64,000 bases of DNA from Oscillospiraceae bacterium (GTDB taxonomy: Bacteria > Bacillota > Clostridia > Oscillospirales > Oscillospiraceae). Shown here piece by piece: positions 3,518 through 39,633 of the stretch. The stretch covers positions 1,073-65,072 of the forward strand of contig JAFZOI010000017.1 of assembly GCA_017550645.1 (NCBI GenBank). The letters are read 5' to 3'. The stretch's first letter is position 1, and each line of letters opens with the position of its first letter. Below the pieces are notes generated by a model, which ran no database searches, had not been told where the DNA came from, and worked only from the letters and a program-made list of their open reading frames with translations. The position numbers were made by a program, and so were the translations under genes.

Positions 3518-4150
3518 ATGAGCAGATTATCCGAAACGATAAAAGCGTATAAGCAGCGCGATCCCGCCGCGCGGAGCTCTCTGGAGATATTTCTCCTCTA
3601 TCCGGGCATAGGCGCGATCATCGCGCACCGCGTCGCGCACTTTTTCTATGTGCATAAGCTGCGCTTTCTCGCCCGCTGCGTCTCGCAGTGGAGCAGATTC
3701 TGCACGGGCATAGAGATACACCCCGGAGCGAAGATAGGCCGCAGGCTCGTCATCGACCACGGCATGGGCATCGTCATCGGCGAGACGGCCGAGCTCGGCG
3801 ACGACGTGCTGCTCTATCAGGGCGTGACGCTCGGCGGCACGGGCAAGGAGCACGGCAAGCGCCACCCGACCCTCGGAAACAACGTCCTCGTCGGCGCGGG
3901 CGCGAAGATACTCGGGCCCTTCACCGTCGGCGACAACGCGCGAATAGCCTCCGGCGCGGTCGTGCTCGGCGAGATACCGCCCAACGCGACGGCGGTCGGC
4001 GTCCCGGCGAAGGTCGTAAGGCTCGCCGGAGAAAAGGTCGACTACGCTTCCGAGGTCGACCAGATACACGTGCCCGACCCGGTCACGGCGGAGCTTGCCG
4101 CACTCAGGGCAAGACTCGAAGCTCTTGAAAACAAGGAGAGAGACAAATGA
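3518..4150 (+). CDS. cysE: serine O-acetyltransferase
   Basis: 210 aa. QRDPAARS N-terminal motif and left-handed beta-helix hexapeptide repeats (GIEIHPGAKIGRRLVIDHGMGIVIGETAELGDDV). Confidence 0.9.
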   Translation: MSRLSETIKAYKQRDPAARSSLEIFLLYPGIGAIIAHRVAHFFYVHKLRFLARCVSQWSRFCTGIEIHPGAKIGRRLVIDHGMGIVIGETAELGDDVLLYQGVTLGGTGKEHGKRHPTLGNNVLVGAGAKILGPFTVGDNARIASGAVVLGEIPPNATAVGVPAKVVRLAGEKVDYASEVDQIHVPDPVTAELAALRARLEALENKERDK

Positions 4151-5550
4151 AGCTCTATAACAGCGCGACACACAGCAAGGACGAATTCACTCCCAACGAG
4201 CCCGGCGTCGTCAGGATGTATACCTGCGGCCCGACCGTCTACCATTTCGCCCATATAGGCAATCTGCGCAGCTACATCATGGAGGACGTACTCGAAAAGT
4301 ACCTGCGCTGGCGCGGGCTCGACGTGCGCCGCGTCATGAACATCACAGACGTCGGCCACCTCACGAGCGACGCGGATACGGGCGAAGACAAGATGCTCAA
4401 GGGAGCCAGGCGCGAGCACAAGACCGTCCTCGAGATAGCGAAGTTCTATACAGACGCCTTCTTCGCCGACTGCGAGAAGCTCAACATCCGAAAGCCCAAC
4501 ACGGTCGTTCCCGCGACGAGCCGCATAGCGGACTTCATAGAGATGATCTCCGTCCTGCTCGAGAAGGGCTACGCCTACGTCGCGGGCGGCAACGTCTATT
4601 TCGACACCTCCAAGCTCGACGAATACTACATCTTCAACAAGCACAACGAGGACGATCTCCTCGTCGGAGCGCGCGAGGACGTCGGCCTCGACGAAGCCAA
4701 GCGCAACAAGACGGACTTCGTGCTCTGGTTCACCAAGTCCAAATTCGAGGACCAGGAGCTCAAATGGGAGTCGCCGTGGGGGCTCGGCTACCCCGGCTGG
4801 CATATCGAGTGCAGCGCCATCTCCATGCGCGAGCTCGGCGACAGGCTCGATATCCACTGCGGCGGCATAGATAACGCTTTCCCCCACCACACCAATGAAA
4901 TTGCTCAATCCGAGGCCTATTGCGGGCATAAATGGTGCAATTTCTGGTTCCACGTCCACCACCTGAACACGGAGACCGGCAAAATGAGCAAGTCCAGCGG
5001 CGAGTTTCTGACCGTCTCGCTGCTCGAGGAGAAGGGCTACGACCCGCTGGTCTACCGCTTCTTCAATCTCCAGTCGCACTACCGCAAGGCGCTCACCTTC
5101 ACGTGGGACGCTCTCGATAACGCCTCCGGCGCGTTCGATAAGCTTATAGCCCGCGTCGCGGCGATACCCGCGGGCGGCGAGGCCGACCCCGACGAGATGG
5201 AAAAGTACCGCGCCGCGTTCGACGAGGCGCTCGGCAACGACCTGAACACCTCCCTCGCCGTCACGGCGCTCTACGACGTGCTCAAGGCGGACATCTCCCC
5301 CGCCTCCAAGCGCGCGCTCATTGCCGATTTCGATACCGTCCTCGGGCTCGACCTCATAGCCAAGGCGGACGCAAAGCCCGCGGAGGAGCCCGCCGAGGCG
5401 GACGCGGAGATAGACGCCCTCGTCGCGGCGAGGACGGCGGCTCGCGCGGCGAAAAACTGGGCCGAGGCCGACCGCATCAGAGACGAGCTCAAGGCGCGCG
5501 GGATAATCCTCGAGGATACGCCGACGGGCGTCAAATGGAAAAGAGCCTGA
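4147..5550 (+). CDS. cysS: cysteine--tRNA ligase
   Basis: 467 aa. Class I signature HIGN (HFAHIGNLRSY) and KMSKS. ATGA overlap with cysE. Confidence 0.95.
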   Translation: MKLYNSATHSKDEFTPNEPGVVRMYTCGPTVYHFAHIGNLRSYIMEDVLEKYLRWRGLDVRRVMNITDVGHLTSDADTGEDKMLKGARREHKTVLEIAKFYTDAFFADCEKLNIRKPNTVVPATSRIADFIEMISVLLEKGYAYVAGGNVYFDTSKLDEYYIFNKHNEDDLLVGAREDVGLDEAKRNKTDFVLWFTKSKFEDQELKWESPWGLGYPGWHIECSAISMRELGDRLDIHCGGIDNAFPHHTNEIAQSEAYCGHKWCNFWFHVHHLNTETGKMSKSSGEFLTVSLLEEKGYDPLVYRFFNLQSHYRKALTFTWDALDNASGAFDKLIARVAAIPAGGEADPDEMEKYRAAFDEALGNDLNTSLAVTALYDVLKADISPASKRALIADFDTVLGLDLIAKADAKPAEEPAEADAEIDALVAARTAARAAKNWAEADRIRDELKARGIILEDTPTGVKWKRA

Positions 5551-28615: not shown

Positions 28616-29551
28616 TCACGCTCTGTTGAATTTCTCCTTGCCCTGCTTGCAGCGCGGGCATTTCCAATCCTCCGGCAGGTCCTCGAACGCGACGCCGTCG
28701 TGCTCGGCGGGATCGTAGACGTACCCGCAGATCGAGCAGACGTACTTGCCGGTGGCCTGCTTGACGGCTATATCGCCCACTGGCTTGCTCTCCGGCGGAG
28801 CGTTCAGGTCCACGACGGCCCTGGCCTCGAGATTTTCATAGCCGAGCGGCGTATGGGTCGAGAGATAGACGGTCGGATGGGAGGCGATGAACTCACGCAC
28901 GGCGTCCAGCGTCTTGCGCGCGGCGGCGATATCTTCGAACACGACGGATATCTTGTTGGCATAAAGCGCCTCGTCCGTGTACGTCACGTCCCCGTGCATC
29001 ATATAATACAGACCGCCGTCCTCGGCAATAACGATGCTGTTGCCGGTCGTATGGCCCTTCGCCTCGATGTAATAAACGCCGTCCGCTATCTTTTGGCTCT
29101 TAGCAAAGTTGGCGTAGGGGCAGTCCGTGAACTCCACGGGGACGACGTTCGCAAACGTCTTCAGCTCGTCGGCCTTCGCCTCCTCCGCGGCGGCGTAGAT
29201 CTTCGCGTTCGGGAAATTGCGTATCTCGCCGGTGTGGTCGGCGTGCTTATGGGTGATCAGTATCTTCGTGACCTGCTCCGGGCGGTAGCCCAGCTCCGCG
29301 AGAGCGTCCACGTAGCTTTTGATCTTTGTGCCCATGTAGATGGGCGTATTCTCGTCCGGCACCTGCTCCGGCGCCTCTGCGGGCATGCCGGTATCGACGA
29401 GGATGACCTCGCTGCCGGTGTCGATGAGGAAGTTCTGCAGGCTGGAGCGATAGCGCACCGCCGGGTCGATCCCGTCCATACCCTCGCCGCCGAAGGCGAG
29501 CGCCTGCGTCATGAACCCGTTTTCATAGAGCTTGACCGCTTTGATCTCCAT
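28616..29551 (-). CDS. MBL-fold metallo-hydrolase fused to C-terminal rubredoxin
   Basis: 311 aa. HxHxDH motif (THKHADHTG), then a rubredoxin tail ([13 protein letters not shown]...[10 protein letters not shown]). Confidence 0.85.
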
Positions 29552-29686: not shown

Positions 29687-29764
29687 TGGTGGACACTAAG
29701 GGACTCGAACCCCTGACCTTCCGCACGTCAAGCGGAAGCTCTACCAGCTGAGCTAAGTGTCCGC
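29687..29764 (-). tRNA. tRNA-Val (anticodon GAC), CCA encoded
   Basis: Reverse complement is GCGGACACTTAGCTCAGCTGGTAGAGCTTCCGCTTGACGTGCGGAAGGTCAGGGGTTCGAGTCCCTTAGTGTCCACCA. It folds as a cloverleaf with anticodon loop TTGACGT and T-loop GGTTCGAGTCC. Confidence 0.92.
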
Positions 29765-29811: not shown

Positions 29812-31638
29812 TCAGTTATTTTGCAATTTGGCGTTGTGGACGGCCTTGGCGCGCTGGGCGTGGTCGAGCACGCGCTTGCGAAGGCGCAGGCTCTTCGGCG
29901 TGACCTCGAGTAGCTCGTCGTCGGCGAGGAACTCGAGGCACTGCTCGAGGCTCATCTGGCGCGGCGGCACGAGGCGCAGGGCCTCGTCGCTGCCGGCGGC
30001 GCGCATGTTCGTAAGCTGCTTGCGGCGGCAGACGTTGACGACGATGTCCTCGTTCTTCGGCGAGACTCCGACGACCATGCCGGCATAGACCTTGACGCCC
30101 GGGGAGATGAACATCGCCCCGCGCTCCTGCGCGTTCCAAATGCCGTAGGCGACGGCCTCGCCCGTCTCGAAGGAGACGAGGGAGCCGGTCAGGCGGCGGC
30201 GCACCTCGCCCTTGAAGGGCTCGTAGCGCTCGAAGACGCTCGCCATGATGCCCTCGCCGCGCGTATCGGTCAGGAATTCGTTCCTGTACCCGAAGAGGCC
30301 GCGCGAGGGGATGAGGAAAATGAGCCTGCTGCGGCTGCCGACGGGCGTGAGCTCGACGAGCTCGCCCTTTCGCGAGCCGAGCTTTTCGATGACGGCGCCG
30401 ACGCAGCTTTCCGGCACGTCCGCCACGAGGCGCTCGACGGGCTCGCACTTTACTCCGTCTATCTCGCGGAAGAGGACGCGCGGGGGCGAGACCTGAAATT
30501 CATACCCCTCGCGGCGCATCGTCTCGATAAGGATGGAAAGGTGCATCTCTCCCCTGCCGGCGACGTTGAAGCTGTCGGTGCTGTCCGTCTCGGAGACGCG
30601 CAGAGACATGTCCTTGAGCGTCTCGCGGAAAAGTCTGTCTCGGATGTTGCGCGAGGTGACGAACTTGCCCTCCGTGCCCGCGAAGGGGCTGTCGTTGACG
30701 GAGAACGTCATCTCGACGGTCGGCGCGGATATCTCGACGAAGGGCAGCGGGTCCGGGAAGCCCGCGGCGCATATCGTGTCGCCTATGGTGACGTCGCCTA
30801 TGCCGGAGAGGGCGACGATGTCGCCGGAGGCGACCTCCGTCTCGGGGACCTTATTGAGGCCCTCGAAGACGTAGAGACTGACGGCGCGCGCCTTCTCGGC
30901 CATTTCGGGCTTGAGGGCGTTTACGACGACGATGTCCTGATTCTGGCGCAGGACGCCGCGCTCGATGCGGCCGATGGCGATGCGGCCGACGTACTCGCTG
31001 TAATCGACGGAGGAGACGAGCATCTGCAGGGGATCCGCGTCGTCGTCGCGCGGGGCGGGGATATAGTCGATTATCGTGTCAAAGAGCGGGCGCAGATCCG
31101 TCCCGACAACCTCGGGAGAGAACGACGCCGTCCCCTGCCGCGCCGAGCAGAAGACCATCGGGGAGTCGAGCTGCTCGTCGGTCGCGTTGAGGTCCATGAG
31201 GAGCTCGAGCACCTCGTCGATGACTTCGTGGATGCGCTTGTCGGGCCTGTCTATCTTATTGACGACGACGATGACCCTGTGCCCGAGCTCGAGCGCCTTG
31301 CCGAGGACGAAGCGCGTCTGCGGCATGGGGCCCTCGGCCGCGTCGACGAGCAGGAGCACGCCGTCGACCATCTTCAGCACGCGCTCGACCTCGCCGCCGA
31401 AATCGGCGTGGCCCGGGGTGTCGACGATGTTTATCTTCGTCCCGTTATAGGTCACGGCGGTGTTCTTCGAGAGGATGGTTATGCCGCGCTCGCGCTCGAG
31501 GTCGCCGGAGTCCATGACGCGCTCTACGACGGTCTGGTTCTCGCGGAAGACGCCGCTCTGGCGGAGCATCTCGTCGACGAGTGTGGTCTTGCCGTGGTCG
31601 ACATGGGCGATTATGGCGATATTGCGGATGTTCTTCAT
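29812..31638 (-). CDS. typA: translational GTPase TypA/BipA
   Basis: Start at [22 protein letters not shown] (ATG 31638). G1-G4 motifs ([17 protein letters not shown]) and a BipA-like C-terminus. The longest ORF reaches 31677. Confidence 0.95.
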
Positions 31639-31766
31639 AAAAGCATCTCCAAAAGGGCCTTCGGCCCGAAGTCTCAAAACTTAGATATTATAACAGAAAC
31701 GGCTGCAAATAGCAACCGTTTCGTTAAGTCATTTCTGCTTTTGGAGATACGCCGGCAGTCCGCCCG

Positions 31767-32663: not shown

Positions 32664-32699
32664 GAAAAAAGTCAAGGCCTTCCCCGTTCGGAGAAGGCC
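32664..32699 (-). terminator. rho-independent terminator after DUF1295 gene
   Basis: Stem ggccttc(c/t)cc..gg(a/g)gaaggcc, followed on the minus strand by ttgactttttt. Confidence 0.7.
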
Positions 32700-32705
32700 C
32701 CGGTT

Positions 32706-33557
32706 TTATTTCTTTATCGGGAGGAGGACGCGGGTCTCGCGCTTATACTGCTCGAAGCCGGGCTTTTTCGACTGCTTGCCGTCCGCCATGGGGATGCTCA
32801 CGAAGGTAAACAGCAGCGTATTTGCGAGCGCGCCCGCTATGAGGTACCAGCGCTGCGGCATGGCGCACACGCACGAGAGCGCGACGCCCCACCACATGGA
32901 TATCTCGCCGAGATAGTTCGGATGGCGCGCATTCTGCCAGAGCCCCGTCCGGATGAAGCCGCCGGCGCCGCTCTTGCGGAAGCGGTGCATCTGGAGGTCG
33001 GCCGTCCCCTGCAGTATGACGGCGGCGAAGGAGACGCAGATGAAGACGACGCTCCCGGCAGTTATCGGCGCGGACTCGACTATCGCGAAGACGGCGGGCA
33101 GGATGCAGACCCAGACGACGAGGGTCGGGACGAGGTGGATGCCGACGAAGTTTATTACGGGATAGGCCTTCCCCGTCTGCTCGCGGAGCAGGACGTACCG
33201 CCAGTCCTCGTGCATGAGGCCGTGGAAGGTATAGGCCCAGTTGCCCGTCAGGCGCACGCCCCAGAAGCAGACGGCGACGAGCAGCAGTACGCCGAGCGCG
33301 GTCAGATGCCGCCCCGCGGCGTAGCAAGCGAGGATGAATATGGGCTGGACGCTCCAGTACGGATCGTAGACGGAGGCGTTTTTGAATATGAGGCTGAAGA
33401 TGAAGGTCACGACCGTCGCGCCTATGTCGGCGACGAGCAGCGCGAGCCAGAAAGGCAGGCTGAGCGCCCTGTAAATGGCTACTCCGGCGAGCGCGGCTAT
33501 AACGTATACGATCACGACGGCGACGAAACTGAGCGCGCGGCTTTCTTTAAGTTTCAA
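32706..33557 (-). CDS. DUF1295 family membrane protein (steroid 5-alpha-reductase/ICMT-like superfamily)
   Basis: Multi-TM protein with the C-terminal signature GLWQNARHPNYLGEISMWWG. Proposed TTG start at 33557 (KLKESRAL...) overlaps the upstream stop as TTGA. No in-frame ATG lies near the hydrophobic N-terminus. Confidence 0.75.
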   Translation of the reverse strand: MKLKESRALSFVAVVIVYVIAALAGVAIYRALSLPFWLALLVADIGATVVTFIFSLIFKNASVYDPYWSVQPIFILACYAAGRHLTALGVLLLVAVCFWGVRLTGNWAYTFHGLMHEDWRYVLLREQTGKAYPVINFVGIHLVPTLVVWVCILPAVFAIVESAPITAGSVVFICVSFAAVILQGTADLQMHRFRKSGAGGFIRTGLWQNARHPNYLGEISMWWGVALSCVCAMPQRWYLIAGALANTLLFTFVSIPMADGKQSKKPGFEQYKRETRVLLPIKK

Positions 33558-33865
33558 GCTTCTGTCCCTTCCCCGGCATTTTCTTTTTCCGACTCCTCGG
33601 CCAGCTCGCGGCCGATGCGGCCCATGAACACGTCCCACGGGCCGAGCCGCTTGACAAGATAGGCGTACCCGACGGTGTTGGCGCGGGTCATCTTCTTGCC
33701 GAGAGCGCGCTTTTGCTCCTTGACGTACTCATAGAGCTCCTCGTCGCTCACTTCGGCGAATTTGGCGGCGAACTCGTCCTCGAGTTCCTTTCTGCCGCTC
33801 TCGCGGAGCTTTTTCTTCACGCTTCTGTCCGAAAGCGTCTTCTTCCTCTTGGGATCGACCGGCAC
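33554..33865 (-). CDS. hypothetical small charged protein (103 aa)
   Basis: GTG start preceded by GGGGAGGGGA SD. Lys/Glu-rich with no recognisable domain. First ORF downstream of the cobalamin riboswitch. Confidence 0.55.
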   Translation of the reverse strand: MPVDPKRKKTLSDRSVKKKLRESGRKELEDEFAAKFAEVSDEELYEYVKEQKRALGKKMTRANTVGYAYLVKRLGPWDVFMGRIGRELAEESEKENAGEGTEA

Positions 33866-33889
33866 GGCGTTCCCCTCCCCGTTATATCT

Positions 33890-33953
33890 GAAATTAAGAA
33901 CGGGCGTAATAAGACATACCTCTCAAATACGTCCCATTACGCCCGATATTCGC
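33890..33953 (-). terminator. riboswitch expression-platform hairpin (putative intrinsic terminator)
   Basis: Minus strand: GGGCGTAAT-G-GGACGTA...TATGTCT-T-ATTACGCCC long stem, followed by GTTCTTAATTT. Lies between the aptamer and the SD of the 33865 gene. Confidence 0.45.
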
Positions 33954-33994
33954 GTCGCACTTAAAACATCCCTCCCCTTGCGGGGCCCTTTGTT

Positions 33995-34200
33995 CTCGAT
34001 CACCATAGGTCTTCCGACTACATGCATTATGGGACTTGCGCCCCTGCGCCTGCCTTTCTACCTTCTCACGAGCTTACTCGCAATGGCCGGATCACTCCGC
34101 GAAAGACAACCTCATGCACTCACGGCAACGTGCAATGTTCCAGATTCTCGCTGGATTCCCTCATCCCGACGGCTGCCTCACACAGTCGAAGGGTCATGAT
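33995..34200 (-). promoter_or_regulatory. cobalamin (B12) riboswitch aptamer
   Basis: The minus strand reads GAGGGAATCCAGCGAGAATCTGGAACATTGCACGTTGCCGTGAG, close to the E. coli btuB leader AGGGAAUCCAGUGCGAAUCUGGAGC. It also carries GCCATTG...TGAGAAGGT (GCCACUG...GGGAAGGC element) and a B12 box AGTCGGAAGACC at 34008-34020. Confidence 0.75.
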
Positions 34201-34318
34201 GCAGCATATTCAATTGTCAATTTCAAATATGTTCAGGTACGTATAGATTAGCCTATTTTTTCACCCGTGTCAATAGCTAAAGGGCGACTTTACGCGCAAA
34301 TTTTCGATTTTCTTCCGC

Positions 34319-34693
34319 TCAGGAGAGGTCGTAGCGCTTTCCGGCCTCCGGCGTCCTGTATTCGTGCTTCTCGTAGTAGCCGATGAGCTCGCCGGACGGG
34401 GCGCGCAGGGCGATCATGTAGACGTCCTTATTCTCCTTTTCGTTGCGGAATGTGAAGACTCTGTTGTGCGACTTATCGGCGCGAAACCACGCGAGTACGC
34501 GCTCTATGGCGGCGTTGGACTCTGCGTTGTGGCAGTCGGTGAGCTTTTTCCCGAGCAGGGCCTCCCCGCCCCGTTTTGAGTAGCGCTCCTTCGCCGAGGG
34601 GTTCATATAGACTATCGTGTGATCCGCGGCGCAGACGACTATGGGCGCGGTGTCCTGCTCCAGAATGCTCCTGAAAAGCTCCTCCATATTCAC
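34319..34693 (-). CDS. stand-alone PAS domain protein
   Basis: 124 aa. The APIVVCAADHTIVYMNPSAKERY...GKKLTDCH pattern is typical of PAS folds. Confidence 0.65.
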   Translation of the reverse strand: MNMEELFRSILEQDTAPIVVCAADHTIVYMNPSAKERYSKRGGEALLGKKLTDCHNAESNAAIERVLAWFRADKSHNRVFTFRNEKENKDVYMIALRAPSGELIGYYEKHEYRTPEAGKRYDLS

Positions 34694-34758
34694 GTTCCGG
34701 GCCTCCCTTCGTTTTCCACATTATACCGCATGGACGCGCGCGGCGCAATATTTTCCTC

Positions 34759-34787
34759 TTGACAGACGCGCGCGGCGCGGATATAAT
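34759..34787 (+). promoter_or_regulatory. consensus promoter TTGACA-17-TATAAT
   Basis: TTGACA 34759-34764, 17-nt spacer, TATAAT 34782-34787. A small palindrome GGGAT-TTAT-ATCCC (34800-34813) lies just downstream. Confidence 0.65.
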
Positions 34788-34835
34788 GGGCTTGTATATG
34801 GGATTTATATCCCGTTATGCAAAGGAGGCCTTCCG

Positions 34836-35456
34836 ATGCGCAAAATGGACGCAGAGCGTTTCTCCGCCATAAAAAGCTGCATAGACCGCTCCCTCGAGGA
34901 GACGGGGCGCTCCCCCACGGTCTACGACATAGAGAGGACGACCGGCATCCCGAAGTCGACTGTCGCGCGCTATCTCGCCCGCATGTGCGACAGCGGCGAG
35001 GTCGAGATATCCGGACGCAGGAGCGTGCTGACGAAAAAGGCGCGCGACGCCGCCGGGGCGACGAGGCGCGTCCCGCTCGTGGGCTCGATAGCCTGCGGCC
35101 TGCCGAAGCTCGCGGAGGAGAACGTCGAGGAATACGTCCCGCTCCCCCGCTCGATATTCGGCTCGGGCGAGCTGTATCTCCTGCGCGCGGACGGCGATTC
35201 GATGATAAACGCCGGCATAGCCGACGGCGACCTCGTCGTCATACGCGGGCAGAACCACGCAGAGCCCGGGCAGATCGTCGTCGCCCTCGTCGACGACGAG
35301 GAGGCCACGCTCAAGCGCTACCGCCCCTCCCCCGCCGGGAAGCGCGTCGACCTCGTGGCGGAAAACGACGATTTCCCGACGCAGAGCGTCGATCTGCGCA
35401 GGCACAGTCTCGCCATTCAGGGCGTGGCGGTCAACGTCATAAAGAGTCTGGGGTGA
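34836..35456 (+). CDS. LexA-family (S24) repressor paralog with UmuD-like Cys-Gly cleavage site
   Basis: Start at MRKMDAERF (AAAGGAGG SD). HTH (TVYDIERTTGIPKSTVARYLARM), SIACGLP in place of the LexA AAG site, then GDSM and LKRY catalytic motifs. Confidence 0.85.
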   Translation: MRKMDAERFSAIKSCIDRSLEETGRSPTVYDIERTTGIPKSTVARYLARMCDSGEVEISGRRSVLTKKARDAAGATRRVPLVGSIACGLPKLAEENVEEYVPLPRSIFGSGELYLLRADGDSMINAGIADGDLVVIRGQNHAEPGQIVVALVDDEEATLKRYRPSPAGKRVDLVAENDDFPTQSVDLRRHSLAIQGVAVNVIKSLG

Positions 35457-35462
35457 GGCGGC

Positions 35463-36797
35463 GTGCGGACCTATTTCTGCATAGACATGAAGTCCTTTTA
35501 CGCCTCCGTCGAATGTGCGGACCGCGGGCTCAATCCCTTTGAGACGGGTCTCGTCGTCGCCGACGTCACGCGCGGAAAAAACGCGCTCTGCCTCGCCGTC
35601 AGCCCGAAGCTGAAGGCGCAGGGCGTCCCCGGGCGGTGCCGGCTCTCGGAGATTCCGAAAAACGTCGAATATGAGGCCGTGCCGCCGCGCATGCAGCGCT
35701 ATATAGACTGCGCGGCCGACATCTATTCGATATACCTCGATCATTTCGACCCGCGGGATATCCATGTATACTCCGTCGACGAGTCGTTTATAGACGCGAC
35801 GCAGTACCTCCCCGCCTGCGGCATGACGCCGCGCTCGCTCGCCAAAGCGCTAATAGACGAGATAGCCGAAAAGCTCCGCATCCCCTCCACGGCGGGCATA
35901 GGGACGAATCTATACCTCGCGAAGATCGCGCTGGATATCACGGCGAAGCACTCGAAGGACCACATGGGCTATCTCGACGAGGAGCTCTACCGCGAGACGC
36001 TCTGGGATCACGCGCCGATAACGGATTTCTGGCAGATAGCGGGCGGCACGGCGCGCCGCCTCGCGCGCTACGGAATAACGACGATGCGCGAGATCGCGCA
36101 CGCGGACTCGGAGCTTCTCTACAAGGTCTTCGGCAAGGACGCGGAGCTCCTGATAGACCACGCGTGGGGCCGCGAGAGCTGCCTCATTTCGGACATAAAG
36201 GGCTATAAGGCCAAGACGCATTCAGTCTCGTCCTCGCAGATACTGCCGAGCGACTACGACTTCTCCCGCGCGCGCCTCGTCATGCAGGAGATGCTCCTCA
36301 ACGGCTGCCACGAGCTCATGCGCCGCAAGGTCATCGCGCGCAAGGTCGGCCTCTACATCGGCTATTCGCACGACGCCATCCCCTCCTCGCACGGCAGCGT
36401 CCGCCTCATGAGTGCGACGAACCTCAACTCCCTCGTGAGCGGCCCCGCGCTCGGCCTTTTCGACAGGCTCGCCTCGCGCGAGGTCCCGATAAGGCGTCTC
36501 GGCGTCTCCTTCGCGGACGTGTGCGACGAATGCGGCGAGGGGTACGATCTCTTTACGGATATCGAGGCCGTCGAGCGCGAAAAAGCCCGCGAGCGCGCCG
36601 TTTTGGAGCTCGCGGACAGATACGGGAAGAACGCCGTGCTGCGCGGCATGAACTTTCTCGACGGGGCGACGCAGCGCGAGCGCAACGAGATGATAGGAGG
36701 ACACAGAGCAGGCTATGATGACGAGGCAGGAGCGGGCCAAGCAGTTCATGCCGTTCGACGCGATGAAGGGGCTTCAGGCCGCGCTGCGCGACCGTGA
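35463..36797 (+). CDS. Y-family DNA polymerase (UvrX/YqjW-like)
   Basis: GTG start. MKSFYASVEC, YSVDESFID and the family-typical near-C-terminal RNEMIGGH. The ORF then continues about 28 aa further, into the YolD gene. Confidence 0.88.
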   Translation: MRTYFCIDMKSFYASVECADRGLNPFETGLVVADVTRGKNALCLAVSPKLKAQGVPGRCRLSEIPKNVEYEAVPPRMQRYIDCAADIYSIYLDHFDPRDIHVYSVDESFIDATQYLPACGMTPRSLAKALIDEIAEKLRIPSTAGIGTNLYLAKIALDITAKHSKDHMGYLDEELYRETLWDHAPITDFWQIAGGTARRLARYGITTMREIAHADSELLYKVFGKDAELLIDHAWGRESCLISDIKGYKAKTHSVSSSQILPSDYDFSRARLVMQEMLLNGCHELMRRKVIARKVGLYIGYSHDAIPSSHGSVRLMSATNLNSLVSGPALGLFDRLASREVPIRRLGVSFADVCDECGEGYDLFTDIEAVEREKARERAVLELADRYGKNAVLRGMNFLDGATQRERNEMIGGHRAGYDDEAGAGQAVHAVRRDEGASGRAARP

Positions 36798-37038
36798 GGA
36801 GCATCATTCCCGCGTCGAGAGGCGCGTGCTGTCCGAGGAGACAATAGCGGCAAACTCGGCCGTGCTCGCGCGCATAGACGTCGGCTCGCAGGTGCGGCTC
36901 CGGTATTACGGCAATTTTCACGAGGCCGTGCGGAGCGGCGCGGTCGAGGAGCTCGACACGAGCTTCCGCTTCCTGCGGCTCGGCGAGGAAAAGATATACT
37001 TCGACGACATTTACGAGATAAGCGATATGCCCTTATAA
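36715..37038 (+). CDS. YolD-like family protein
   Basis: 107 aa. QFMPFDAMKGLQAAL...YFDDIYEI is the YolD-like pattern. Positioned directly after the Y-family polymerase, as in B. subtilis yqjW-yqjX and uvrX-yolD. Confidence 0.8.
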   Translation: MMTRQERAKQFMPFDAMKGLQAALRDREEHHSRVERRVLSEETIAANSAVLARIDVGSQVRLRYYGNFHEAVRSGAVEELDTSFRFLRLGEEKIYFDDIYEISDMPL

Positions 37039-37095: not shown

Positions 37096-39633
37096 TCAGG
37101 GCAGGACCGGGGTCCAGTACTCGTTGTTGTAGATATCCGTGAAGACGTACATCGCGGAGGCGTACTGCGCGTCGGGGATATACACGTCGTTGACGGTGTA
37201 GGTCCCGTCGTAGACCCACTGATCGCCGAGCATATAGGTGTCGGAATACTCGCCGGCGTAGGTGTAGTAGTCGCAGAGGAAGTCTATCCTGTCGCCGATC
37301 TTGAGAGGCACTTCCTTGGCGACGGCTTCGGTCTCACCGGAGGTGTAGGCCATGCGGGCGCCCGCTATCTTGCCGATACCGTTCGGATTGGCGTCGTCAT
37401 AGAGTATCACGACGATGAGCTCGGCCCTCGCGCCGTTGAGATAGACGGGCACGCGGCCGGTGATCGCCATGCCGCCGTCATAGACGGTCGTGTCCATGTG
37501 GTAGTACGCGACGGGTTGGTTGTTGATGGCGAGCCAAGTCCCGTCGTACTCGCCGACGAGGTCGCCGTTGGCGTCGAAGCTGAACTTGTTGTCGAGGCCG
37601 AGGTCGATGTAGCCCTCGCCGTCGTCATAGAAGACGTTCAGCTCGAGGCCGTTGACATAGGACCACTGCTCCTCGGTCAGGTGCATCGTATAGCCGTTGC
37701 CGTTCGAGGACCAGATGAGCGCGGTGGGATCGAAGCGGTTATCGCTCAGGTATTCGACGGCGCTGTCGGCGTCAAGCCCCCTGCCGAAGAGGGAATCGAG
37801 CCCGGTGGTGCCGCCGAGCATGCTGCCGAGGCCGGAGGTATCTCCGCCGAAGAGGCTGCCGAGCAGGCTGTTGACCATGTCGTCGCCCATGAGGCTGCCG
37901 CCGGATGAGGCGCCGAACAGGGACGAGTACGCGGAGGTGCCGCTCGAGATGGTCTGGCCGCCGGCCTCCATGCTCGCGAACTGCTGGATGCAGCGGGAAT
38001 ACTCGCTGTCAAGTCCGAGCGCTTCATAGGCCGCGACGGCGCTGTTGACCTTGGATATCTTCTGATACGGGAAGTAGACGGACACGCCGTAGGCGTTGGT
38101 CACGCTGGAGGCAGTCCTGTTGTACTTGACCGCGCCGAGGAGGGTGTTGGCGAGTTCGCGGCCCTCAGCCGTTCCGATGCGGTTGGCGAGGTCGACGAGG
38201 TCGACCTGATCGGACTTGCTGGACTCGGCGAAGGAGCGCGCGCTGCTGCGGGCGTCGGAGACGGTCTTATACCCGTCGTTGTTCATGAGCTCGGAGGTGC
38301 TCTGCGCGAAGGCCTTGAAGTCGGCGGGGACGGTCTTTTCAAGCTCGGCCAGGTCGATGATGGAGAGCGTCGCCTTCTGGCCGGAGCATCTTCTGTCGCA
38401 CTGGGTGATGAAGTCGTCGATGATCTGCTTGCCTACCCTTACCGTCTCGGTCGAGGTGTTCTGCGAGATGGTCGTCAGCCAGTCGGTATAGTACCAGCCG
38501 ATGCCGGGCTCCGTCTCCTCGGAGGCGATGAGGTAGTCCGCGTAGGGCGCCATGGTGAGAGCCGTCTCGAGCGTTCCCATGAGGCAGGCGTCATATCCGA
38601 TGAAGTCGAATTTCACGCCGCCGCTCTGGAGCGCGCTGCTCAGGCGCTGGAGGTTCATGGAGCCCGACTTCGTGTTCTTTTCGTCATAGCCGTAGCCCGT
38701 GATGGAGCCGCCGCCGTGATCCCAGAGGATGAGCTCATTTCTGTTTGCCTGGAAGTTCGTCGCGCAGAACTGGATGAAGCTCGTCAGCGTGGAGGGGTCT
38801 GTCATGGCGCCGGTGCCCGCGTTGTCGACGAGCTTGCGAACGCCGCCGGACTCGATCTTGTAGATCTGGTTGACGGTGCTGCTCACGATGCTGTTCTGCC
38901 ACTTCTTACAGCCGCCCGTATAGACGATGACGTTGACCTTGTCGCTTATCCTGGCGTTGCACATCTCCTGGATGTCGTAGGAGCCCATGCCGCCGCCGCT
39001 CTCAAGGTCGGAGCCGCACATATAGACCATGACGGTGACGGTATCCTGACCGCCGCCGAGTATCCTCGTATATTTCGCTCTGGCGGAAGGATCGACGCTC
39101 GTATCGAGGCTCGAGATGTTCTGCGTTGAAGTCCAGCCGGAGGAATAGCCGCTCGCGGAGGACGTCAGGCCGCTGCTCGACGAGGTCATGCCGCCGAGGA
39201 GGCTGCTGAGGTCGAGCCCGCCGTAGGACGAGCTGGACTGGGTCGCCTGCGTGGTCTGCTGCAGCATTTCGGTCTGCTGCAGTCCGGAGAGCAGCGAGGT
39301 GAGATCGCCGCCGGTGCCGGTCACGTCGGTCGTCGTTCCGGAGCCGCAAAGCTTCGGCCTGAGGAAAAGGAACGCGACTACGATGATGATAATGATAAGG
39401 ATGGGGCTCATCTTCCCGGCCGAGCGGGCGCGGGTCACGTTGACGTTCGTGTTATTCTGTGTCGCGCCGGTCTGAGGCGGGGTATAGCCCGGTCTTCTCC
39501 CGGCGTAGCCGCCCTGCTGCCCGACGGGGCCGGTGCCCTGCCCGGAGCCGCGTCTGCCGATGGAATTGCCGGTGCCCGTCGCGTTGCTGGGGCGCCCCTG
39601 CGGTCTGTTCTGCGGTCTGTTGTTCTGATTCAT
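37096..39633 (-). CDS. clostripain-family (C11) cysteine peptidase, membrane-anchored
   Basis: 845 aa. Gly/Gln/Pro-rich N-terminus, one TM (ILIIIIIVVAFLF), Ser/Thr-rich linker, then a C11 core with LILWDHGGG (His) and FIGYDACLMG (Cys). Confidence 0.82.
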   Translation of the reverse strand: MNQNNRPQNRPQGRPSNATGTGNSIGRRGSGQGTGPVGQQGGYAGRRPGYTPPQTGATQNNTNVNVTRARSAGKMSPILIIIIIVVAFLFLRPKLCGSGTTTDVTGTGGDLTSLLSGLQQTEMLQQTTQATQSSSSYGGLDLSSLLGGMTSSSSGLTSSASGYSSGWTSTQNISSLDTSVDPSARAKYTRILGGGQDTVTVMVYMCGSDLESGGGMGSYDIQEMCNARISDKVNVIVYTGGCKKWQNSIVSSTVNQIYKIESGGVRKLVDNAGTGAMTDPSTLTSFIQFCATNFQANRNELILWDHGGGSITGYGYDEKNTKSGSMNLQRLSSALQSGGVKFDFIGYDACLMGTLETALTMAPYADYLIASEETEPGIGWYYTDWLTTISQNTSTETVRVGKQIIDDFITQCDRRCSGQKATLSIIDLAELEKTVPADFKAFAQSTSELMNNDGYKTVSDARSSARSFAESSKSDQVDLVDLANRIGTAEGRELANTLLGAVKYNRTASSVTNAYGVSVYFPYQKISKVNSAVAAYEALGLDSEYSRCIQQFASMEAGGQTISSGTSAYSSLFGASSGGSLMGDDMVNSLLGSLFGGDTSGLGSMLGGTTGLDSLFGRGLDADSAVEYLSDNRFDPTALIWSSNGNGYTMHLTEEQWSYVNGLELNVFYDDGEGYIDLGLDNKFSFDANGDLVGEYDGTWLAINNQPVAYYHMDTTVYDGGMAITGRVPVYLNGARAELIVVILYDDANPNGIGKIAGARMAYTSGETEAVAKEVPLKIGDRIDFLCDYYTYAGEYSDTYMLGDQWVYDGTYTVNDVYIPDAQYASAMYVFTDIYNNEYWTPVLP

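Follow-up and report, generated by a model that had tools for sequence, protein, structure and literature searches.

A cobalamin riboswitch with an unannotated small-protein gene as its probable conserved cargo and a DUF1295 gene as its apparent passenger in an Oscillospiraceae bacterium

A stretch of 64,000 nucleotides (nt) from an Oscillospiraceae bacterium (GenBank assembly GCA_017550645.1, contig JAFZOI010000017.1, positions 1,073 to 65,072), hereafter called the window, carries on its minus strand a cobalamin (vitamin B12) riboswitch followed by two open reading frames (ORFs), the first coding for a basic protein of 103 amino acids (aa) and the second for a membrane protein of the DUF1295 family. 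We consider it likely that this riboswitch acts as a transcriptional OFF switch, repressed by B12, at the head of a cassette whose cargo is the small protein, an undescribed member of the B12 regulon, and that the DUF1295 gene is a captured passenger. A comparison of genomes at the homologous loci gave a divided answer, as the riboswitch is absent from orthologous DUF1295 loci and present at loci carrying homologues of the small ORF.

The riboswitch and its two genes

The aptamer was identified by Rfam cmscan as RF00174 (Cobalamin) at 33987–34210 (minus strand), with a score of 43.0 bits vs. a gathering score of 31.5 and a match spanning model positions 1–189 of 189, the element being full-length and endowed with a large peripheral extension. 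Its E-value was 5.3e-09 when the 2 kb at 33000–35000 were scanned, where it was the single match, and 1.7e-07 for the whole 64-kb window, of which it is the sole riboswitch match. All the motifs quoted by the initial annotation of this DNA (AGGGAATCCAGCGAGAATCTGGA, GCCATTG...GAGAAGGT and the B12 box AGTCGGAAGACC) are present. At the RNA level, the core motifs found are AGGGAAUCCAGCGAGAAUCUGGA, GCCAUUG, GAGAAGG and AGUCGGAAGACC, those expected being the GGGAA..GGUG.GAAUCC hairpin, GCCAYUG, GAGAAGG and AGYCRGRAGAC, and a regular expression combining the core and the B12 box matches the window at 34087–34010. In the close relatives L082, L086, L087, L088 and L089 (loci are designated here by L numbers), RF00174 reaches 39 to 43 bits.

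In Firmicutes, RF00174 riboswitches with a peripheral extension and an intrinsic terminator precede btu, cob and cbi operons, and ligand-induced termination is their standard mode of action. The element of the window shares with these canonical riboswitches the full covariance-model match, the B12 box, the GCCAYUG/GAGAAGG core and a downstream GC hairpin with a U-tract; it is a genuine and ordinary member of RF00174. Its unusual feature is its cargo which, unlike that of the canonical riboswitches, is neither a transporter, nor a biosynthetic gene, nor a B12-independent isozyme, but a 103-aa HNH_repeat-like protein and a DUF1295 protein.

Concerning the expression platform, a terminator scan and folding located an intrinsic-terminator-like structure at 33891–33945 (minus strand), composed of a 20-bp hairpin (33945–33901), which begins 42 nt downstream of the aptamer, and of the U-rich tract TTCTTAATTT at 33900–33891; this is the long hairpin with a U-containing tail that had been noticed initially. 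The 146-nt stretch containing the hairpin has a folding z-score of -3.85 relative to shuffled sequences. In L088, the hairpin is kept with both arms altered (GUAAUGGGAC/GUCUUAUUAC vs. GUGAGGGAC/GUCCAUCAC).

The small ORF occupies 33554–33865 (minus strand), as delineated by ORF calling and comparison with homologues, and starts with a GTG at 33865, a start codon backed by L088, which has an ATG there. A Shine-Dalgarno sequence, GGGGAGGGG (33872–33880, minus strand), can be read 6 nt upstream of it. The TGA stop codon of the small ORF overlaps the TTG start codon of the second ORF (TTGA), and this layout is exactly as first described. The second ORF (32706–33557, minus strand) codes for a 283-aa polytopic membrane protein whose assignment to DUF1295 is confirmed by a match of 137.6 bits to PF06966 (gathering score 20.4) over profile positions 2–235 of 235, with additional weak matches to Steroid_dh and ERG4_ERG24. 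A terminator-like hairpin, with a 13-bp stem containing 8 GC pairs followed by the T-run ACTTTTTTCT, closes the bicistronic unit at 32673–32702 (minus strand). Since both ORFs sit between the riboswitch and this terminator, both are probably repressed by B12 in this organism.

Comparison of DUF1295 loci

The initial annotation had placed its emphasis on the DUF1295 gene and had suggested, by the logic of B12-independent isozymes, that the encoded enzyme carries out a reaction which becomes dispensable when B12 is present. This logic fails in its key test, the recurrence of the riboswitch across DUF1295 orthologues in other taxa. Homologues of DUF1295 number in the thousands, and an alignment of the window protein with 15 orthologues contains 83 invariant columns. 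For the comparison, 80 loci were taken from different GTDB species of Clostridia and Treponema (50–66% identity, about 0.43 Mb in total). A cobalamin riboswitch was found in none of the 55 orthologous loci scanned with Rfam, 51 of which include at least 700 nt of upstream DNA, and the regular expression had no match in any of the 80 loci. This expression recovers 21 of 24 Rfam-positive elements, the three missed being those at 2745–2879 in L092 and 4528–4802 in L091, and a partial AdoCbl match in L095. Likewise, a tblastn search of the 80 DUF1295 loci detected no homologue of the small ORF.

The most informative locus in this respect is L081, which shares its gene order with the window (YolD, IMS polymerase, LexA, PAS, DUF1295 and BipA genes) at a DNA identity of 73–82%, and whose DUF1295 protein is 76% identical to that of the window. 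It has neither the riboswitch nor the small ORF, only 80 bp separating the stop codon of the PAS gene from the DUF1295 start. In the window, a conserved promoter-like block can be read at 34245–34273 (minus strand), with TTGACA at 34273–34268, a 17-nt spacer and TAATCT at 34250–34245. The same TTGACA-N17-TAATCT block is common to the window, L082, L088 and the cassette-less L081; in the first three it shortly precedes the riboswitch, and in L081 it is directly followed by AAAGGAGG and by the TTG start codon of DUF1295, a start shared with the window. We infer that this block is the pre-existing promoter of the DUF1295 gene and, given its position directly before the DUF1295 start in L081, that about 680 nt comprising the riboswitch, the terminator and the small ORF entered a pre-existing 5' untranslated region (5' UTR).

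The complete riboswitch–small ORF–DUF1295 arrangement is found in L082 and L088, within a clade whose DUF1295 proteins are at least 80% identical, while L086, L087 and L089 contain the riboswitch and the small ORF on sequences which end before the DUF1295 position. A single gain of the cassette in the DUF1295 5' UTR would be the parsimonious reading of this distribution. As the link between the riboswitch and DUF1295 is confined to this narrow clade, it looks like a by-product of the landing site of the cassette, and DUF1295 itself looks like a lineage-specific passenger of the riboswitch rather than its conserved target.

It could be argued, on the other hand, that DUF1295 is the functionally relevant target, either as an enzyme dispensable in the presence of B12 or as a corrinoid-handling enzyme, and that the small ORF is an accessory. 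Translation of the gene is indeed coupled to that of the small ORF (through TTGA in the window and ATGA in L088), no separate promoter for it lies downstream of the riboswitch, and the arrangement has been kept across the clade defined above. However, besides the absence of the riboswitch from the orthologous loci, including the syntenic L081, the homologues of the small ORF outside the clade of the window never precede a DUF1295 gene in the loci retrieved, and a literature search found no paper linking DUF1295 with riboswitches. DUF1295 as the target is therefore regarded as unlikely.

Small-ORF loci in other Clostridia

Contigs were taken for nine diverged homologues of the small ORF, whose identities to the window protein are given below as percentages; a metagenome scan for further loci returned four close relatives only. 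In the window and in at least seven other locus types, an aptamer and a terminator lie within about 700 nt upstream of the small ORF, on the same strand. Among these seven, L095/96 (40%) displays the highest RF00174 score (74 bits), followed by L102/103 (35%; 61 bits), L098–101 (48%; 49–52 bits) and L083/84 (57%; 48 bits with a terminator, then a second, weak copy of 15 bits). L092/93 (56%) has matches of 41 and 43 bits and a third, proximal motif match, and L091 (58%) has a proximal motif match at 3754–3832 and a further RF00174 element (40 bits) after the small ORF. The seventh, L085 (48%), is partial, its contig beginning inside a B12-box-like 3' end. As for the two remaining loci, no aptamer was found in the 58 nt available upstream of L104/105 (41%), and the 96 nt upstream of L106 (40%) are too little to judge.

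A GC hairpin with a U-run intervenes between aptamer and ORF in the window, L088, L083, L091, L092, L098, L095 and L102, and clear homology unites the aptamers of L083, L091, L092 and L099, which argues that the riboswitch and the small ORF evolve as one unit.

The genes downstream of the small ORF, by contrast, vary from one locus to the next: secreted proteins of 200 and 290 aa in L083/84, a 551-aa protein and then a 3219-aa SLH protein in L092/93, genes for a 531-aa protein and a 3466-aa SLH protein in L091, a 1164-aa protein and dockerin proteins in L098–101, a second paralogue followed by a 1191-aa GLUG protein in L095/96, and a secreted protein of at least 199 aa in L085, where the contig ends. 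In L106, the small ORF is coupled, through a 4-nt overlap, to the gene of a 2015-aa DUF4430/SLH protein; in L104/105, it is an internal gene of a DUF4430/ECF-type operon; and in L102/103 it has no downstream gene. Since these genes vary while the cobalamin element recurs, the small ORF, and not DUF1295, appears as the conserved partner of the riboswitch.

With few exceptions, the neighbouring genes encode exported or membrane proteins or are B12-related. Upstream of the L091 unit lie cobN, ABC, cbiK and TP_methylase genes, and the unit of L098–101 is divergent from a DUF4430/ECF transporter operon. In transcobalamins, DUF4430 is the C-terminal domain (PMC4350170). Together, these neighbours point to a role of the small protein connected with corrinoid scavenging. 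The unrecognised role in corrinoid handling that the initial annotation had envisaged for the gene pair is accordingly plausible for the small ORF, with its upstream cobalamin aptamers and its DUF4430, ECF-transporter, cob and secreted-surface-protein neighbours, rather than for DUF1295.

Several features of these loci deserve mention in their own right. Two or three cobalamin elements stand in series upstream of the small ORF in L083 (582–735 and 859–1111), L092 (2745–2879, 3316–3469 and about 3590–3855) and L091 (about 3620–3855). The ORF-proximal copies keep the GCCATTG..GAGAAGG core and a AGTCAGGAGAC B12 box, score only 15 bits with Rfam, and have a shortened hairpin (GGGGCGAAACCCC or GGACTTACGTCC) where the canonical copies have GGGGTGAAAATCCCC; such a copy may be a functional variant aptamer or a decaying duplicate. 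The operon of L098 (2683–3264, minus strand, and upstream genes) and L104 (1497–4211) encodes a DUF4430 protein, a membrane protein of about 295 aa, a duplicated ABC ATPase and an ECF S-component, and resembles a corrinoid uptake system. The L098 copy is oriented divergently to the riboswitch–small ORF unit and has no riboswitch match of its own, and the L104 copy includes the small ORF among its genes. Finally, L095 carries tandem small-ORF paralogues (4001–4288 and 4353–4649) behind a single cobalamin riboswitch, that of 74 bits, with a phage-type integrase about 2.5 kb away, and a partial match to the AdoCbl variant (RF01482) at 1961–2038.

The small protein and its family

The small protein has no signal peptide and is basic with an acidic tail, its isoelectric point (pI) being 8.8 overall and 9.7 without this tail. 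From the lack of a signal peptide and the pI of 8.8, it would be a cytoplasmic factor, and it would be made under B12 limitation. The AlphaFold2 (AF2) model predicts an all-helical protein with five helices, at a predicted local distance difference test (pLDDT) score of 71.

Between the window and L088, the differences in the small ORF are distributed as 9/9/32 over the three codon positions, a pattern that indicates purifying selection, and ten residues (M1, R25, E29, F32, D41, L44, G66, R73, G75 and W77) are invariant in 25 sequences with a mean identity of about 29%. The codon-position pattern and the nine invariant residues other than the start methionine argue that the small ORF codes for a real protein. 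This evidence bears on the view that the ORF is a non-functional translated leader, which would only couple read-through of the riboswitch to the downstream gene. The small ORF is always the first ORF after the terminator, it is often tightly coupled to the next gene, as in the window and L106, and no function, structure match or annotation was found for it. A mere leader is nevertheless very improbable in view of the selection acting on the protein, the existence of duplicated paralogues (L095) and of two-repeat versions, and the small ORF of L102, which is monocistronic and followed by convergent genes.

A word-index search with the small ORF returned few homologues, whereas an exhaustive profile search collected 146 cluster representatives at E ≤ 1e-3. 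By length, the family divides into small proteins (about 100 aa), two-repeat proteins (about 200 aa) and long arrays, the latter being bona fide HNH_repeat (PF18780) proteins with 10–22 copies of the repeat and no informative partner domain. Residues 39–85 of the window protein, i.e. its C-terminal half, align to the full repeat model with 19.8 bits, below the gathering score of 26, while 11 of 20 small family members match PF18780, with a best E-value of 1.4e-08. The family profile reaches the HNH_repeat arrays; unlike these, the subfamily has a single copy, preceded by a conserved 35-aa N-terminal helix pair (L-x-x-x-L-x-x-P-x-R-x-x-x-E-x-x-F-A). We prefer to call the small protein a divergent, single-copy relative of the HNH_repeat superfamily and not a certified member. 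We know of no demonstrated function for PF18780. All the source names retrieved for the family are blank or "hypothetical", and one member cluster holds a protein found on 378 contigs. The window protein had no match in NCBIfam, PHROGs gave noise only, and the literature searches found no paper on the "homing endonuclease associated repeat" and nothing relevant on cobalamin riboswitches combined with HNH.

The name of this repeat raises another explanation, namely that the cassette belongs to a selfish or mobile element, that its small ORF encodes a protein related to homing-endonuclease accessory domains, and that it came by its riboswitch through historical accident and takes no part in B12 physiology. 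Its varied genomic places, its insertion-like behaviour in the window, the phage-type integrases within about 1–3 kb in L095/L096 and L102, and the AbiEii and zeta-toxin-like genes nearby would all fit such an origin. Yet no nuclease domain occurs in any small member, no PHROG match rises above noise, and no flanking repeats were seen at the junctions. Homologues were also absent from 50,697 phage records and 72,556 plasmid records searched with tblastn, and from the IMG/VR viral contigs, which argues against a simple mobile-element explanation. Moreover, the aptamers score above the gathering threshold among homologues of only 35–58% protein identity, which implies selection for B12 control, and the small ORF repeatedly adjoins cob, DUF4430 and ECF-transport genes. 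A selfish cassette is thus considered improbable.

Genomic surroundings

Directly upstream of the putative promoter lies the gene of a stand-alone PAS-domain protein of 124 aa (34319–34693, minus strand). Beside it, a SOS mutagenesis cassette at 34641–37038 (plus strand) codes for a LexA-like repressor (Peptidase_S24), an IMS/DinB-type translesion polymerase and a YolD-like protein, these labels being taken from the 79%-identical L081. The L088 lineage is devoid of this SOS block, and its peptidase C11 gene abuts a truncated PAS remnant. In the window, the corresponding region is followed at 37096–39633 (minus strand) by the gene of an 845-aa clostripain-family (Peptidase_C11) protein with a long N-terminal low-complexity region rich in Gly, Ser, Thr and Gln and a putative membrane anchor. 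On the other side of the unit, a tRNA gene (68 bits; 29690–29762, minus strand) is located immediately downstream of a BipA/TypA-type GTPase gene (29812–31677, minus strand), a pair also present in L081, and at 28616–29551 (minus strand) a 311-aa protein combines a metallo-beta-lactamase fold with a C-terminal rubredoxin domain.

Discussion

The proposed mechanism, in which ligand binding, OFF polarity and promoter use are predicted from sequence features, is as follows. Transcription would start at the old DUF1295 promoter, around 34245–34273. With a corrinoid bound to the aptamer (33987–34210), the 20-bp terminator (33901–33945 and its U-tract) would form and the transcript would stop before any ORF, whereas under corrinoid scarcity read-through would give a bicistronic mRNA ending at 32673–32702, from which the 103-aa protein and, via TTGA-coupled translation, DUF1295 would be made. 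The riboswitch, terminator and small ORF would constitute one evolutionary unit of about 680 nt, which in the ancestor of the narrow clade would have come to separate the DUF1295 start codon from its promoter, so that DUF1295 became B12-repressed as a passenger. Across Clostridia, the small HNH_repeat-like protein would be a conserved and selected cargo, its gene coming first after the cobalamin aptamers of corrinoid-acquisition neighbourhoods.

A number of observations weigh against this mechanism or parts of it. Concerning the switch, a search for an antiterminator, in which the 3' portion of the aptamer would pair with the terminator's 5' arm, gave no statistically supported pairing: the most stable duplex, AGUCCCAUAAUGCA with GCGUAAUGGGAC, has a free energy of -17.4 kcal/mol, which was matched by 134 of 500 shuffled arms, and L088 uses a segment different from that of this candidate duplex. 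The -10 hexamer of the promoter-like block, TAATCT, is weak, and a consensus promoter scan did not call it; as there is no obvious terminator between the PAS gene and this block, read-through from the PAS gene into the riboswitch leader is possible. Concerning the passenger status of DUF1295, the TTGA overlap (ATGA in L088) means that its expression is now integrated with the cassette, and such a tight overlap of stop and start codons suggests that the coupling could be adaptive rather than incidental. As for the small ORF, the sample is small (about ten locus types), and the homologue of L104/L105 is an internal operon gene without an aptamer in the 58 nt upstream of it. A Foldseek search with the AF2 model gave no match in the PDB (best E = 7.7) and none in BFVD (best E = 2.3), and neither the family profile nor a four-repeat HNH_repeat protein has sequence relatives in the PDB.

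The situation bears some resemblance to that of Bacteroides, where BtuG, BtuH/DUF4465 and BtuJ, initially proteins without a function, were recognised through B12-riboswitch-controlled acquisition loci (PMC6143338, PMC8941943). The small ORF similarly co-occurs with genes of B12 loci (DUF4430, ECF-transporter and large surface proteins). The Bacteroides proteins, however, are surface-exposed, B12-binding lipoproteins, whereas the small protein, basic and helical, lacks a signal peptide, shares no sequence similarity with them and belongs to Gram-positive Clostridia. A nucleic-acid-binding or regulatory accessory of corrinoid scavenging is our best guess for its function, and a tentative one.

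A more specific and rather speculative proposal is that the HNH_repeat-like protein of about 100 aa is a new trans-acting part of the clostridial B12 response. Made only in the absence of corrinoid, it would act as a nucleic-acid-binding regulator or adaptor, switching on or aiding the scavenging machinery encoded nearby or elsewhere, such as the giant DUF4430/SLH/dockerin surface proteins and ECF-type uptake. B12 riboswitches with a trans-acting output are exemplified by Listeria Rli55 and AspocR and by Enterococcus EutX, in which a small RNA or antisense RNA is produced. If the small protein were a regulator, its riboswitch would broadcast the B12 status in trans in the same way, the output being a protein instead of an RNA.

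The comparison presented here corrects an attractive but wrong inference, that of DUF1295 as a B12-linked enzyme, and the locus illustrates how a riboswitch cassette that lands in the 5' UTR of an unrelated gene can capture it. It also brings to light an unannotated family of small proteins whose gene recurs, in gut and rumen Clostridia, as the first one after a cobalamin riboswitch. Members of this family frequently stand at the start of operons encoding very large secreted proteins that carry DUF4430, SLH or dockerin domains. To our knowledge, corrinoid capture is far less understood in Gram-positive gut bacteria than in Bacteroides, and the small-ORF family and its neighbours provide concrete candidates for the Gram-positive corrinoid-capture machinery or its regulation. 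An experimentally tractable host may exist, given the protein present on 378 contigs in a single cluster. The importance of the family would be higher should the small protein prove to be a trans-acting B12-status factor, for the riboswitch and small ORF would then form a portable "B12-status module", which puts new genes, here DUF1295, under B12 control where it lands.

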